Position numbers: made by a program. This document shows, one piece after another, positions 15,701-21,700 of a DNA stretch of 64,000 bases (within the stretch, counting starts at the first letter, position 1; every line of letters starts with the position of its first letter). This stretch comes from Pseudomonadota bacterium (GTDB lineage Bacteria; Myxococcota; JACRCW01; JAFGSX01), in assembly GCA_043821645.1 (NCBI GenBank), contig JBDRCO010000087.1:1-64000 (forward strand), read 5' to 3'.

Positions 15701-18700
15701 AAGCCGATGATGGCTAGGTAACCGCCGTGATTGAGCAAGGAGAACGCACTCTGCTGGCCGGGCTTGGTGCCCGAGGTCTCGAAGATCTTCCAGCACTGCA
15801 CGGGCGCACCCAGCTGCTTGGCCTCGTTCTTGACCGCTCCCTTGAGTGCCTTCTCGTCGAGCCCGCGCACGTTGAGGGTGGCGCTGGCGCCGAACTGCCG
15901 GGCCAGTTCGAGTTTGCCGTCGTCGATATCGAGGGCGATCACGGTGGCGCCGGTGGCCGCCGCCACCTGCACCGCGTGCACGCCTATGCCGCCGCTGCCG
16001 ATGACGATGGCGAGATCCTTCTTGCCGAGCTCCGCGCGCCGCACGGCCATGAAAGGAGTGCTCACGGCGTCGGCCACGACGGAGAGCTGCCACAGTTCGT
16101 GGCTTTCGAGCGCCTTCGCCGGCACCGGGCACAGGTAGCGCGCAGGCACCACCGCGTGGCTGGCAAAACCGCCGTGCCTGTCGTTGCCGGGCATGATCTG
16201 CGAGGTGCAGATGGGGCGGTGATCCGAGGTGCACAGCGCGCATGTGCCGCAGGGCAACACCGCCGGGACCACCACGGGCTTGTCGACGAGGCTGGCGTCG
16301 GTATCCGGTCCCACGGCGCGCACATACCCGCTGATCTCGTGCCCCAGCACCAGGGGCAGGGGCGCGCGGGTCTTCACCCCCATGTGCAAGAAGGAGATGT
16401 CGGTGTGGCAGACCCCGCAGCCCGCGACCTCGACCAGGGCCTCTCCCGCAGCCAGGGTCGGCGTCTCGTAGTCGCGCTTCTGAAGTGGCTTGCCCACGTC
16501 GGTCATCATCCAGCCGCTGATGGTCTTGACCTCTGCCATCTTCTTCTCCTTCGACAGTGGGCCGCGACCGGCCCCGGGTGAGGCGTTTGAAATAGAGCCA
16601 CGCGTCGTCACGCGGCGGATTGCACCAGATCCAGACCGATCAAGGCCGCGCCCAGAGCGCCGCTCATGATGGGCTCGGGCAGCACGGCCACGTCATAACC
16701 GCAGCGCTGGGCCAGAGCGCCCATGACGCCGGTGAAGTACTCGCACACGCCGCCCGTGGCGACGATGGGTGGCTCCAGTGCTCCGATTTCCATGATGCGC
16801 TCGGCCACGGAGTGCATGCAGCCCAGGGCGATCTCGTCGACGGTGGCGCCGTTGCGGAGCTGTTCGATGACGTCGACCTCCCCGAAGACCGAGCAGTAGC
16901 TGCCAATGGTCACGGGTTTACTGGCCGAGGTGGCGAGGTCCATGAGTCGGGTCGGGTGCACGTCGAGGTGGCGCGCTGCGAACATCAGAAAGGTACCGAT
17001 GCCCACCGCGCATTTTCGCACGGAACGGCTGGACAGAACCCGGCCCTGCTCGTCGATGCGAATGACCTGAGGATCGCGGCCACCGATGTCGATCAGGGTC
17101 AGCGGTCCCGCGCGATGCCGCATGGCGGACCGGGCATGGCACCGCACCTCGCTCAGGGCCTCCGAGGCCATGGGTGCGCAGGTGGCGCCAAAACCCGTGA
17201 CGCAGCTGGCGCGCAGATCGCTCACGCCGATCTTGGCCTCGCGCAGGGCATTGCCCATGGCTTCCTGGATGCAGTCCTGGAAGTAGCCGCGGGTGGGGAC
17301 CACGGCCTGGCCGACGGGCGTGCCGGCGCTGCTCAGCACAAGCACCTTGATGCACTCGGTGCCAGCGTCGGTGCCGGCGACAAAAACCTCCGTGCTGCTC
17401 ATGAGGCCAGCTCCTTGCCCCGCGCACGCCCGTTGCCATCGCGGCCCGAGTTCTCGATGAATTCGCCGAGCTGTCGCTGGATCTGATCCATGGACACCAG
17501 GCGCAGGTCGTGGGTGTCGGCCTCGATGACCAGCGACGGGGTGCCGGTCTCGCGCTCCATGCGATGGTGCAGGCCATAGCGGACATTGCTGTGCTCGGGG
17601 CTGGTGCGGGCGTCGTGATAGATCACGCCGTCGACGCCATAGCGCCGGAACTCGTCGGTGAGGAACTGCACCTTGTGCTCGCGCGAGCGGTTCGGAAAAA
17701 TCGACATGTAGGTGCGGGCCATGCTCTCGATGGGATTGTCGGGGTCGAAGCCGGTGAGCGCGAACACACTGGCGTAGGTCGACCCGACCACGGCAACCTG
17801 TTGATCCAAGAACAGCCGTGCCAGGGGACGCAGCGCACACCAGATCGGAGGACCTTCCCAGTAGAAGCGAAAGCGCTCTCCGGGCACCGCGGGCACCTCG
17901 CTGGCAATGCGCTGCTCCAGCTCGGCCAGCAGGATCTCGTAGTACTGCACGGCCTGGGGTGTGCCTCGCATCAAGATCATGGGTGCCAGGTGCACCACGG
18001 CGTCGAAGGCGGTGAGGGGGCTCGGCACGTGCTCGGCGAGCTTGAGCACCTTCTTCCACAGACGCCCGGCCTGGGCGGAGAGCTCCAGGGTCTGGGCCAG
18101 CTTGTCCATGTCCATCTTGCGACCGGCCTGCCGCTCCAGACGCTTGATCAAGCGCAGCATCTGCTGCACGGCGGCGTCGACGTCGATCTGCTCGATGTCG
18201 TCGAGAAAGGCCGGCGGGTGCAGTCCAAAGACGGGTGTCCAGAAACGATGGTTGTAGTACTCGAACCAGCGCGCCACGAACTGCCCAAAATTGGTCGAGT
18301 ACACCAGCACCTGGGGTCGCGGCACGGCCCGAATTTCGTGCAGGCTGATCAGGGGCGTCTCACCGGCCAGCATGGCGCCGATGTCACTGGTCATCTCCGT
18401 CGACACGAAAGGCGAGAATCCGTCGGCAATGGCACGGCTGATGTACTGCGTGGCCAGGCGGCTGGCGCCGATGAGGGCGGCGTGGTTCTCGGGGAAGTAT
18501 GGGGTGTAGCCCAGGGCGCGCAGCGCCTCGACCGGCGCGAAGCCGGAGCACCAGGCCACGTGGCCGTCCGGGCTGTCGGCGACACGGCCGAGTTCCTGGT
18601 AGGCGCCACGCACCAGTTCCTTGAGCTTGGGTGCACACTCCAGCGGGACGCGGCCGCTGGGCATGCCCCCCAGCCGCCCACGAACGGTCGGATGCGCAGG

Positions 18701-21700
18701 CATCATGGGGGGGGCCAGCCTCACCTCTGCCAGGGTGCGCTGGGCGCGTTCCTTGTGGCGCAAGCCCATGCGCTCTCGCGAGTGCATCAGGCGCACGATG
18801 GCCCAGTTGAGCGGGGCCTGGAGCCCCAGGCGGAGCGCCTCGTCGACGATGCCGCCGTTCATGGCGTCGATCTCTGTGCGATAGCCGCGGACCAGGTCCT
18901 GCCACATCGAGGGACGGTTCTTGGCCAGGGCTTGCTGCGATCCGATGACCGGCCGGTACGGATCCTCCTCGTCCTGGATGGGGACGCCGCGGGCACGCAT
19001 CACCGCGACGATCTCCATGCAAACCTCGCGCATGAGCTGCTGGATGTCGTCATCCTCAAGGAGTTCACTGCAGGTCATCCCGGTGAGGGCCGAGATGGGG
19101 TTGACCACGGCATTGTGCAGTAGCTTTTGCCACACCGCGTGATCCACGTTGTCGACGACCTTGGTGTCGAGTCCGGCCTTGCGGAACAGTTCGCCGATGG
19201 CTTCGATCTCCGGTGTAACCTGGCCCTGCACCGGGGCGATCTGCACCGGCTTGATACCTGCGCGGTAGCGGATGCGGTTCGGGCCTGTGTGCTGGATGCT
19301 GTGAATGGTGCTGCCGCTGAGGATGCGCTCGCGCGACACGTGGCGCGCGATCTGCTCGATGTTGCCCACGCCGTTCTGCGTCGACAGCACCCAGGTCTCC
19401 GGGCCCAGCACCGGCAGTACCGTCTGGACCGCGGCCTCGGTCTGGTAGGTCTTGACCGCGACGAACACCAGGTCAAAGGGACGCAGACCGTCGACTGACG
19501 TCACCACCTCGACGGGGACTTGAACCTCACCCTGCTGGCCCTGCGAGATGAACAGGCCAGACTCGTTGAGCAACTTGGCGCGAGCCAGGTTGATCTCGAG
19601 CAGCGTCACATGCTCGCCGTGCAGGGCCAGACGCGCACCGAACAGCCCACCCAGTGCTCCCGCACCCACGATCAAGATTCGCATGGCAACCCCCACCAGT
19701 TCTCAGGGCGCTCCCGGCGCACCCTTCGAGCGCTCAAAGTCTCCCCCCTCCCGCAGACCTTCACATCACCCCGCCACCATCGCGGCTTCTCTGATAGCAC
19801 GAAGGCCTCAGCGCAGGCTCGAACGACCTGGCCTTACCTGGCCAGGCGTGCCCGTGAGGCCGTCCAGGAACAGCTGGCACAGTTCGTCGCCGAGCTTCTC
19901 CACCGGTGCATCCCGGGCCGGGTCGAACCACATGAAGGTCCAGTTGAGCGCCCCGAAGACAAAAAGCACCTGGTGCCTCACCAAAGCGGCTCGTGCCGGG
20001 AGTCCGTGCGCCTTGAGCAGCGAGGTCACCGCGTCGACCATGAGCTTGAAGTAGCGGCGCCGCAGCGCCTCGATGTGCTCGTAGGCATCGCCGCGCAGGG
20101 AATGCAGCTCGAAGGTGCAGACCTTGAGCTCCGCATCGTGGCGCGCGTAGAAACCCAGATGGTTGTGAATCAAGGCGCGCACTCTTTGCTGCTCGTCGCT
20201 GTGGCGGTGCTGCACCTCGACCTGCTCGGCCAGGAGTGACGAGAACACGCGTTGCTGGAGCTGAAACAGCAGGTCTTCCTTGCTCGCGAAGTAGTGGTAC
20301 AAGCCGGCCAGGCTGTACCCCGTCGCCCGCGACACGTCGCGCATGGTGGCCTGGTGATAGCCCTTGTCTGCCATCAAGCGAGCGGCCTTGCCGATGAGCA
20401 CGGCCCGCTTGTCGTCGTTCCCTTCGGTGGCGCTGTGGCCATTCCCCGTGGCGGTGCTCGCGGTGTTCAAGGCCTCCCTCCCTGGTCCCCACCTGCGTCT
20501 CCGCCCTCGGTGCGCGCGCGCAGTCCGCGCAGAATCTTGTCCGGCGTGATGGGCAGCTCGGTCACCCGCACGCCGGTGGCGTCGTACACCGCATTGGCGA
20601 TGGCCCCGAGGACAGGCAGCAGCGAACCCTCACCGATCTCCTTGGCACCGTAGGGGCCGCGCGGCTCGTAGCTCTCGACGGCGTGGGTTGATATCTCGGG
20701 GGTCTCGCCGATGGACGGGATCAGGTAGTCGTGCAGGTTGGGATTGGCGATGCTGCCGTCGGGCAGATGCAGCGTGTTCTCCATCAGGGTCTCGCCTATG
20801 CCCATGACCACCGAGCCCTCGACCTGGGCGTGAAAGGTCATGGGGTTGATCACCGTGCCCGCGTCCGAGTAGTCGGTGACGCGCTCCACCGTGACCAGGC
20901 CGGTCTCGAGATCCACGTCGACCTCGGCCACCACCGTCGAGAAGCTATACGCCGGCGAGGTGCCCACGGTGCCGCCCTTGAAGTCACCGCCCAGGCTCTT
21001 GGGCGGCTGGTAAAAACCCACGCCGACGACGGGGCCACCGCGGGCAAAAGCCAGGCGCGCGGCCTCGTCCCAGGCCATGCCGACGCTCGGATGCTCCTGG
21101 ACGACGATGCGGTTGTCGCGAGCACTCAGGGCCTCGGGCGCACAACCCAGCTCCCGCGCGGCCGCAAGCAGGATCTTGTGCTTGGCGTCGGCCGCGGCCA
21201 TGCGCACCGCGTTTCCGGCCATCAAGGTGACGCGGCTCGAGTAGGAGCCGAGATCGATGGGCGCCAGGGCCGAGTCGCAGTCCACCATGAAGATGTGCTG
21301 GTAGGGGATACCCAGCTCCTCGGCGGCGATCTGCGGCAGCACCGTGTCCGAGCCCTGGCCGATCTCCGACGCTGCGATGGCCAGGGACACGGCGCGGCCA
21401 TCCTCCTGCACCCGGATCACGGCGTTCGAGTGCGGGAAGTCAGAGCGGTAGATGGGATACCCCGCGCCCGACACGAAGCCGCCGCAGCCCACGCCTATGC
21501 CCTTGCCCCGGGGTAGCTTGCCGCGCTTGTCGCGCCAGCCCGAGCTGTCGCGGGCCTTTTCGATGGTGGCGGTGAACTCGCAGGACGAGATGTCCAGGGC
21601 GTTGCAGGTGCGGGTCTCCGGCGTCATGGCGTTGCGCAGCCGCATCTCGACGGGATCGATACTCAGCTCCTCGGCCAGCATGTCCATCATGGACTCGAAG

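Follow-up and report, generated by a model that had tools for sequence, protein, structure and literature searches.

A gene widely conserved in bacteria joins a reductase domain of the ketopantoate reductase (KPR) fold to a HadB-like dehydratase domain stripped of its cluster cysteines, and most likely contributes to channeling acids derived from phenylalanine and tyrosine into anaerobic benzene-ring breakdown without attacking the ring itself. Encoded as a single open frame (g03653) in the 64,000-nucleotide stretch of DNA analyzed here (the window), the fusion scores above the Pfam cut-off for each of ApbA, ApbA_C and HGD-D, and 120 of 120 homologues among the matches listed carry all three domains. 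With 8000 candidates scored, 401 proteins match it at E ≤ 1e-30, and 80 of 99 loci confirmed in GTDB genomes were kept for comparison; both the architecture and the wide distribution given in the preliminary description hold. We tentatively favor a reading in which an aryl-lactyl-CoA dehydratase system would lead from these acids to benzoyl-CoA, with the fusion supplying both its entry enzyme and its non-catalytic half; the aryl substrate and the quaternary structure are presumptive.

Table 1. Features around the fusion gene, in window coordinates
Feature	Position	Strand	Basis
Thiolase	7293-8492	-	
Dch-like crotonase	8611-9381	-	256.7 bits, Dch cut-off 292.5
oah	9409-10497	-	TIGR03200 578.5 bits, cut-off 464.45
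Acyl-CoA dehydrogenase	10641-11822	-	below every cut-off
Thiolase	11845-13128	-	Pfam
3-Hydroxyacyl-CoA dehydrogenase/enoyl-CoA hydratase fusion	13157-15256	-	Pfam
Gene directly past act1	15469..16611	-	TIGR03201 441.2 bits, cut-off 338.65
act1, activator-family (ASKHA) protein, cluster cysteines present, phosphate loops remodeled	16608..17402	-	TIGR00241 129.9 bits, cut-off 125.4
Fusion g03653, 761 aa	19684-17399	-	single open frame
HadB-alpha-like domain without the three [4Fe-4S] cysteines, residues 346-761	17399..18649	-	alignment, fold match
Flexible linker, residues 308-345	18650..18763	-	low pLDDT, low identity
KPR/PanE-fold 2-oxoacid reductase domain, residues 1-307	18764..19684	-	Pfam ApbA + ApbA_C, TIGR00745
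TetR-family regulator, upstream of fusion	19808..20470	-	Pfam TetR_N + TetR_C_24
4-Hydroxybenzoyl-CoA reductase (Hcr)-like molybdoenzyme	20467..24217	-	TIGR03194 917.7 bits, cut-off 994.55
Its fused gamma+alpha subunit	20467-23319	-	
Its short FAD subunit	23348-24217	-	

Reductase domain, cysteine-less domain and act1

The KPR domain scores 259.5 bits against TIGR00745 (cut-off 141.35), and K78, N104, K187, N191, N195, S259 and E271, including the Lys187 and Glu271 already reported as invariant, are present in 84 of 84 aligned fusions. Glu30, located after the second strand and present in 80 of these 84, is presumably a hint of NADH use. The Rossmann GxGxxG and the catalytic Lys, Asn, Ser and Glu, mapped by motif, are likewise invariant in all 84 (catalytic residues of the family are named in 10.1101/2024.01.05.573888). 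Fold and catalytic residues are common to KPR-fold D-2-hydroxyacid/D-mandelate dehydrogenases (8WL1, 3WFI) and ketopantoate reductases (5HWS), at about 23–30% identity, but unlike in these enzymes the domain is here joined to a dehydratase-fold domain. Neither sequence nor fold scores, which are alike against T. kodakarensis KPR and D-mandelate dehydrogenases, separate the two activities, and NADH-dependent D-2-hydroxyacid dehydrogenases are known among KPR-family members (10.1101/2024.01.05.573888). Most likely, the NAD(P)H domain makes the dehydratase substrate; the fusion gave no sign that it feeds electrons to radical chemistry.

Beyond a linker whose residues 321–329 have pLDDT below 50 and whose mean identity to the query is 34%, versus 66% and 59% for the two domains, the C-terminal half finds its best fold match in HadB (3O3M, target-normalized TM 0.94). 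Opposite the HadB cluster cysteines in the alignment, the fusion has S428, G467 and S695. As had been reported for most fusions, the three cysteines are missing: 74 of 84 aligned sequences have none and 10 have one. With these cysteines and also the Ser and Tyr that contact substrate in BzdO gone, the radical site cannot lie in the fused subunit; Glu399 and the residues at the dimer interface are kept. Against the double-cubane cluster protein model NF040772, the fusion and its cysteine-intact paralog reach 43.1 and 46.7 bits, far below 350.

The following gene, act1, overlaps the fusion stop by 4 bases and was described as an activator with an altered ATP motif; indeed, its phosphate loops are remodeled in 72 of 72 homologues, with Glu in loop 1 in all 72, Gln to Arg in loop 2 in 67, and the TGxGR Arg missing throughout. 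The corresponding loops bind phosphates in DCCP-R (PMC9351452), and act1, which retains both cluster cysteines in 72 of 72, is on sequence grounds a probable pseudo-ATPase. Across 33 loci, the fused domain and act1 are nearly as conserved as the intact copies (59% and 58% versus 64% and 60%).

The cysteine-intact paralog and its possible assembly with the fusion

The paralog and a second activator, act2, lie on another contig (C37:38894, g01245-g01246), and both this location and the 41% identity between paralog and fused domain agree with the preliminary description. Its three cysteines, present in 47 of 47 paralogs, align to BzdO Cys95/128/380, which are cluster ligands (PMC11971306) and substantiate the ligand roles given in the preliminary description. 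With these cysteines and an acid-base Glu, aligned to HadB and BzdO, the paralog has the hallmarks of a 2-hydroxyacyl-CoA dehydratase alpha subunit, and it scores higher against HadB (164 bits) than against MbdO (116) or BzdO (67). Two cluster cysteines and intact ATP loops are present in 43 of 43 act2 proteins. A paralog occurs in 48 of 50 fusion genomes searched (out of 80), and a full-length copy in 46 of the 80 loci; a CoA ligase is encoded directly 3′ of it in 36 of the 39 loci with room to show it.

A modeled complex of the fused domain and the paralog scored 0.74, against 0.00 for the best of three controls (116 of 157 solved pairs and 2 of 215 mismatched pairs reach the mark set for this score), with runs agreeing in at least 91% of contacts and partner pLDDT of at least 90. 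The two probably belong to a half-disabled heterotetramer, although resemblance to HadBC/BzdNO could account for the score, and homodimers would also fit the pseudo-symmetric interface. The ancestor would have been a single-subunit form, presumably a homodimer, whose [subunit, activator] gene pair was duplicated; one subunit copy and one activator copy would then have lost their catalytic residues and retained their assembly surfaces. The most likely outcome, and a quite possible one overall, would be a radical dehydratase turned from homodimer plus homodimer into a heterotetramer with a pseudoenzyme subunit and a pseudoenzyme activator chain, one catalytic cluster, one working ATP site, no relay cluster and a tethered reductase. 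If so, a single ATP site suffices for firing the low-potential electron; in the dehydratases and class I reductases of the literature cited here, every catalytic-fold chain carries a cluster and every activator chain, as far as described, a nucleotide site, and a natural version with one dead half per module would directly test the need for the second of each.

It is rather unlikely that the same aryl-lactate pathway is instead served by two separate complexes, in which a paralog homodimer and an act2 homodimer would dehydrate as in single-subunit systems. That arrangement would suit the tight fusion–act1 spacing (act1 starts −10 to 62 bases from the fusion end in 64 of 64 loci measured), the frequent placement of paralog, act2 and ligase away from the fusion locus, and the invariance of Glu399 and many pocket-side residues in the fused domain. 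Distance correlations, too, are higher within the gene pairs (fusion–act1 0.91, paralog–act2 0.92) than across them (0.74, 0.73), paired paralogs do not form a single clade in the tree, and single-subunit forms occur without the disabled copy (among 31 positives in a phylum sample of 401 genomes, 14 have the paralog but no fused copy), all of which speaks against a heterotetramer. Gene linkage alone could nevertheless yield the within-pair correlations. Pairwise co-variation also fits a heterotetramer, given that in DCCP:DCCP-R the activator dimer is centered on the two-fold axis of the catalytic dimer (PMC9351452). Also against two complexes are the near-constant presence of the paralog in fusion genomes and, where the two adjoin, the gene order fusion-act1-paralog-act2.

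Pathway context and related systems

The fused domain is a duplicate within a single-subunit HadB-type dehydratase family that travels with an activator, a CoA ligase and a KPR-type reductase. Among 62 loci selected for a paralog-type subunit and 5 kb or longer, several of them near-duplicates, 4 show the fusion arrangement; the other 58 include 28 with a KPR-type gene, fused to the activator in 11, and in P0125 a divergent KPR is fused to a cysteine-intact subunit, making three different fusions within the family.

HadB of the (R)-2-hydroxyisocaproyl-CoA dehydratase HadBC/HadI (3O3M, 4EHT) is the best sequence and fold match of both fused domain and paralog. Shared with that system and with the clostridial phenyllactate system FldABC/FldI/FldH, reportedly described by Dickert in 2002 (as cited in PMC13416013), are a subunit with three cysteines and a catalytic Glu, an ASKHA activator with two cluster cysteines, and an adjoining 2-oxoacid reductase and CoA-activating enzyme. 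Unlike these systems, the module contains no detectable HadC-type gene (beta-like genes scored in related loci are BcrC, BzdN or BcrC-like), its putative partner subunit being the cysteine-less alpha duplicate; it has two different activators, one degenerate, a CoA ligase rather than a CoA-transferase, a fused KPR-fold reductase, and a setting of ring degradation rather than fermentative reduction. HAD is given in a passage of PMC8473912 as a heterodimer with a cluster-bearing beta subunit.

In the aryl-lactate route that we favor, the KPR-fold domain would reduce phenylpyruvate or 4-hydroxyphenylpyruvate to (R)-aryllactate, probably with NADH, the ligase encoded next to the paralog would form aryllactyl-CoA, and the paralog would dehydrate it through radical chemistry of the HadB type, after priming by an ATP-driven electron. 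Hydratase, dehydrogenase and thiolase, whose genes are present, may then convert cinnamoyl- or coumaroyl-CoA to (4-hydroxy)benzoyl-CoA and acetyl-CoA, the Hcr-like enzyme may strip the 4-OH, and a separate class I or II reductase would attack the ring. Genes at 11845..15256 (−) are candidates for beta-oxidation of cinnamoyl-CoA or for the lower benzoyl-CoA pathway, which the beta-oxidation genes could all serve, and ligase and paralog lie on a contig other than the fusion's; both points weigh against this route.

Neighbor counts in the 80 loci resemble those reported earlier (activator 74 versus 75, had 49 in both, full-length paralog 46 versus 51), a TetR-family regulator recurs upstream, and an Hcr-like large subunit is found in 44. 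The crotonase called dch recurs (52 loci) under a weak label: the window copy lies below its cut-off, and related copies reach 135–160 bits in 13 of 14 sampled and are unlisted in one, against 292.5. Similarly, the supposed glutaryl-CoA dehydrogenase scores 229.7 bits against 470. Close homologs of the SDR, OB-thiolase or upstream crotonase were not found in this genome, which also counts against the aryl-lactate route.

The closest described counterpart is Desulfococcus multivorans Dmul_24830-24900, annotated as "putative phenylpyruvate reductase" and "predicted R-phenyllactate dehydratase" alpha and activator (PMC5109826, Table S1), with two CoA ligases and IorAB; genes of the benzoyl-CoA pathway and for a separate class II reductase lie next to it. 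Locus L192 has nearly this set (IorA, IorB, PaaK-like ligase, KPR, activator, subunit, ligases), Dmul_24740/24750 is annotated with the same architecture as 11845..15256, and we infer orthology from the genes present, their length and the 60% identity between the paralog and a homolog in Desulfonema magnum. In contrast to the fusion system, D. multivorans has a single alpha subunit (416 aa), a single activator, a free reductase and no disabled duplicates, and its names are predictions. According to the passages of PMC5109826 that concern it, the organism has neither padB nor padEFGHI and can grow on phenyllactate; proteins of these clusters are formed specifically with phenylpyruvate and phenylacetate, though Dmul_24850-70 are not named there among those induced.

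Unlikely, on balance, is the same chemistry with another substrate or direction, for example conversion of glutaconyl-CoA via 2-hydroxyglutaryl-CoA to 2-oxoglutarate after ring cleavage, action on branched-chain 2-oxoacids, or hydration of cinnamoyl-CoA to phenyllactate followed by oxidation to phenylpyruvate. It would explain linkage to benzoyl-CoA genes whichever reductase class is present; the best solved relative acts on 2-hydroxyisocaproyl-CoA, the ADP-forming ligase of 13 of the 80 loci is reversible, and Dorries et al. (PMC5109826) take the D. multivorans genes to convert phenyllactate into phenylpyruvate, counter to the route we favor. Aryl substrates upstream of benzoyl-CoA are nonetheless indicated by IorAB and PaaK-like neighbors in single-subunit loci, by the frequent Hcr-like enzyme, and by the filing of the D. 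multivorans clusters under phenylacetate and phenylpyruvate, not benzoate (PMC5109826). If correct, the aryl-lactate route is a redox-neutral, Pad-independent path by which phenylalanine and tyrosine reach benzoyl-CoA in Myxococcota, Gemmatimonadota, Acidobacteriota, Krumholzibacteriota and Eisenbacteria, and a candidate for the phenylpyruvate-to-benzoyl-CoA step of anaerobes without Pad enzymes, left unclear in the passages of PMC5109826 considered here.

Relation to ring reductases

The preliminary description left ring reduction and 2-hydroxyacyl-CoA dehydration fed by a 2-oxoacid reductase both open; we favor the latter. Ring reduction by the fusion system is unlikely because 44 of the 50 genomes searched encode a separate reductase, in several loci within the same cluster, and because the domain branches outside BcrB and BzdO. 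BcrC lies above cut-off in 33 genomes, with 2 more broken or truncated, BamB alone occurs in 8, BzdNO in 1, and three more give weaker BcrC-family matches; the class II enzyme previously noted in this genome is BamB on C9 (1073 bits to 4Z3W). A quick tree groups fused domains with paired paralogs and single-subunit forms in one clade (SH-aLRT 99), separate from BcrB and BzdO, and BcrB and BzdO models give the fusion 144 and 42 bits and the paralog 141 and 80 (cut-offs 486.55 and 448.6). The earlier proposal, an undescribed variant of a radical enzyme that carries an NAD(P)H domain of its own, stands in outline, with the fused subunit itself not the radical site.

The system does share a fold family with the class I reductases BcrABCD, BzdNOPQ and MbdNOPQ (PMC11971306; 8S02, 9G87, 9GAI), with which it co-occurs, and like them has two catalytic-fold chains and two different activator chains. 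Four genes in a row resembling bcrCBAD, the two activators and the location among had, oah and hcr-like genes would fit a new class I enzyme, in which the catalytic paralog, a cysteine-less domain replacing BcrC/BzdN and an act1+act2 heterodimeric ATPase would act perhaps on a substituted benzoyl-CoA. We judge this very improbable: besides the separate reductases, clade and BcrB scores above, the second chain is an alpha duplicate without cysteines, unlike BzdN with its electron-relay cluster (PMC11971306), and the KPR domain and ligase would be left without a role. The two activators both fall far under the BcrA, BcrD and BzdQ cut-offs, and one of them, act1, has altered phosphate loops. Scarcely credible is a chance fusion of a pantothenate-pathway ketopantoate reductase with a decaying pseudogene, as the database name 2-dehydropantoate 2-reductase and the TIGR00745 score might suggest, given that the cysteine-less domain and act1 are conserved at 58–59% across phyla, that KPR-type genes accompany this family in three kinds of fusion, and that a second ApbA gene lies elsewhere in the genome. 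Annotated as ketopantoate reductase or BcrB-like, such genes may be miscounted as ring reductases in metagenome surveys.

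Architecture and residues of the fusion

The proposed joining of a ketopantoate reductase (KPR)-fold enzyme to a HadB-like domain is borne out by a single reading frame with ApbA, ApbA_C and HGD-D domains, whose stop is overlapped by an activator-family gene, act1 (see table). A frameshift or assembly artefact is ruled out by this unbroken frame and by 120 or more homologs of full length: a protein search over 8000 candidates returned 401 proteins matching the fusion at E ≤ 1e-30, with all three domains present in all 120 matches listed, and a genome scan confirmed 99 relatives, from which 80 loci were kept with phylum labels of Myxococcota, Gemmatimonadota, Acidobacteriota, Krumholzibacteriota, Eisenbacteria and others. 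As candidates for an unfused cysteine-less domain, the 23 best short matches checked all start at or after fusion residue 341 and may be cut fusions. The AlphaFold2 model features two well-folded domains with a loose linker between them (mean pLDDT 89, pTM 0.58), and its top fold matches are, in order, HadB, ketopantoate reductases, MbdO and D-mandelate dehydrogenases. A literature search outside most subscription journals found no paper on the fusion and none pairing 'benzoyl-CoA reductase' with 'ketopantoate reductase'.

Judged by their residues, the reductase domain of the fusion is intact and the second domain is dismantled at its active site. Reductase-domain residues K78, N104, K187, N191, N195, S259 and E271 are invariant in 84/84 fusions, and position 30 is a glutamate in 80 of the 84, which would favour NADH. 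In BzdO, as described in PMC11971306, the catalytic cluster is liganded by Cys95, Cys128 and Cys380, and the substrate is contacted by Ser44, Glu65 and Tyr97. The residues aligned to these cluster and substrate positions are invariant in 47/47 paralogs, the cysteine-intact HadB-like subunits. In the fusions the loss of the cluster cysteines is confirmed (none in 74/84, one in 10/84), and the substrate positions hold the serine in 4 of the 84, the tyrosine in 0 and the glutamate in all. Other cysteines of the fused domain, candidate ligands of a substitute metal site, recur at C379 (74/84), C616 (63/84) and C638 (27/84); a double-cubane cluster is ruled out by a family-model score far below the cut-off.

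The altered ATP motif that the preliminary description had ascribed to the activator after the fusion is likewise evident in act1, where phosphate loop 1 carries a glutamate in 72/72 sequences, the glutamine of loop 2 is replaced by arginine in 67/72 and the arginine of TGxGR is missing, while both cluster cysteines are retained in 72/72 and the catalytic-base glutamate in 58/72. In DCCP-R both these phosphate loops bind phosphates (passage of PMC9351452), and we infer that act1 would be ATPase-dead. The activator paired with the paralog, act2, is canonical in 43/43. Compared pairwise across 33 loci, the sequences share on average 59% identity in the fused domain and 58% in act1, as against 64% in the paralog and 60% in act2; neither disabled half is therefore decaying, and this conservation rules out a decaying pseudogene.

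Coordinates of the features discussed
Feature	Location	Strand	Content
Fusion	window 19684-17399	-	761 aa
act1	window 16608-17402	-	activator family (ASKHA)
Hcr-like enzyme	window 20467-24217	-	gamma fused to alpha; 289-aa FAD subunit
GAPDH-PGK fusion	window 30258-32726	-	822-aa frame
Paralog, window's genome	C37:38894
HGD-D gene pair, window's genome	C68:47947-50255
HGD-D gene pair, window's genome	C87:93026-96040
Four-gene paralog unit	L017:14992-18538
KPR-activator fusion	L149:9211
KPR-activator fusion	L168:9188
KPR-activator fusion	L171:9188-11023
BcrC/BcrB/activator-like set	L099:3708-7846

Possible assembly with the paralog

The fused domain and the paralog could meet in one heterotetramer or belong to two separate complexes. 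Modelled as a dimer, paralog and fused domain scored 0.74 against 0.00 for the best control, with at least 91% contact agreement between runs and a partner pLDDT of at least 90; the complex-score mark used is reached by 116/157 solved pairs and 2/215 mismatched pairs. Because like complexes have been solved (HadBC, BzdNO), the model may be reproducing known structures, and because the two chains contribute equivalent residues to the interface, homodimers are also compatible with the model. Counting against an obligate tetramer, distance correlations over 36 loci are higher within the gene pairs (0.91 and 0.92) than across them (0.74 and 0.73), and the paired paralogs do not form one clade in a quick IQ-TREE tree. 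Overall, the heterotetramer is modestly favoured over separate complexes.

Relation to ring reductases and single-subunit dehydratases

The usual gene order is fusion, act1, paralog, act2, CoA ligase and had, and several loci hold canonical bcrC, bcrD, bzdN, bzdO or bzdQ above cut-offs in the same cluster. That the fusion would itself be a ring reductase is made unlikely by its co-occurrence with separate reductases and by its placement in the tree. A genome-wide search for 50 of the 80 loci found BcrC above cut-off in 33 and broken or truncated in 2 more, BamB in 9, 8 of them without BcrC above cut-off, and BzdNO in 1; altogether, 44/50 hold a separate ring reductase, 3 have weaker matches and 3 none. 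In the window's genome BamB adjoins an HdrA-like gene, and no close BcrB or BcrC was found. Furthermore, in the quick IQ-TREE tree the fused domain groups with the paired paralogs and the single-subunit relatives in a single clade (SH-aLRT 99) outside BcrB and BzdO. The fusion is thus probably not the ring reductase, and its system is not a member of the class I reductases. The system would work like the HadBC/FldBC dehydratases, but it departs from them in the beta subunit and in one activator.

We assign the fusion to a dehydratase system built on a single subunit. The paralog, nearer HadB than MbdO or BzdO, occurs in 48/50 fusion genomes and is followed by a ligase in 36/39 loci with room to show one; in a 401-genome phylum sample it is present in 31, 17 with the fused copy and 14 without. 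Paralog-type subunits also retrieved 62 loci, each 5 kb or longer (52 metagenome loci and 10 genome regions, some near-duplicates), 4 of which have the fusion arrangement. A KPR-type gene is found in 28 of the other 58 and is fused to an activator in 11, namely at L149, L168, L171 and eight more loci, beside a single-subunit dehydratase; several of these loci also hold canonical bcrCBAD. In P0125 (GAB4289179.1), apparently a separate fusion event, a divergent KPR is joined to a subunit of this family that keeps its cysteines. L217 has an unfused KPR, 63% identical to the reductase domain of the fusion, ~7.6 kb away from a single subunit. The KPR-type reductase thus has three different fusion partners within the dehydratase system and is thereby tied to the same pathway.

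Within the paralog clade, the unfused 413-aa member P0145 also lacks the three cluster cysteines, possibly through a second, independent loss. The paralog, act2, an ADP-forming acyl-CoA synthetase and a sodium:solute symporter form a four-gene unit on C37 of the window's genome and at L017, seen also in L030, L058, L059, L078 and L190. The window's genome has two more HGD-D gene pairs, on C68 and C87, all below named cut-offs: one HadB-like plus HadC-like with no activator match nearby, the other with its own activator. At L099, a four-gene set scoring at about half the Bcr cut-offs adjoins a ferredoxin-like gene and oah; it may encode a class I reductase of the Mbd type or of a new one.

Candidate pathway and neighbouring genes

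We propose that the system would serve conversion of arylpyruvate via aryllactate and aryllactyl-CoA to cinnamoyl- or coumaroyl-CoA. The L192 locus, with IorA, IorB, a PaaK-like ligase, KPR, activator, subunit and two ligases, nearly reproduces a set in Table S1 of PMC5109826 on Desulfococcus multivorans, which names a putative phenylpyruvate reductase and a predicted R-phenyllactate dehydratase alpha subunit and activator, near a dehydrogenase/hydratase fusion, thiolase, bam, dch and oah genes. According to the same source, this organism has neither padB nor padEFGHI, can grow on phenyllactate, and produces proteins encoded in these clusters specifically when given phenylpyruvate or phenylacetate. 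The link is indirect, one of gene set; a Desulfonema magnum homolog is 60% identical to the paralog. Some KPR-family proteins are NADH-dependent D-2-hydroxyacid dehydrogenases (10.1101/2024.01.05.573888), and phenylpyruvate-to-cinnamoyl-CoA-to-benzoyl-CoA chemistry has been proposed for another purpose (passage of PMC13416013); the passage and supplement of PMC11887813 contain nothing on a phenylpyruvate-to-benzoyl-CoA route. By bookkeeping, the proposed route would be redox-neutral, with benzoyl-CoA and acetyl-CoA as products. The Hcr-like enzyme found in 44/80 loci fits a tyrosine branch.

The FAD subunit of the Hcr-like enzyme occurs in a short form in 37 loci, including the window, where it lacks the cysteine-rich insertion of the longer L025 form, and in a long form in 6. 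A hemerythrin-domain gene, whose product may sense or scavenge oxygen on behalf of the oxygen-sensitive enzymes, recurs at the cluster end, after had, in L079, L085, L091, L092, L099 and other Gemmatimonadota loci. Elsewhere in the window, a further fusion joins a type I glyceraldehyde-3-phosphate dehydrogenase, above the cut-off of TIGR01534, to a full phosphoglycerate kinase.
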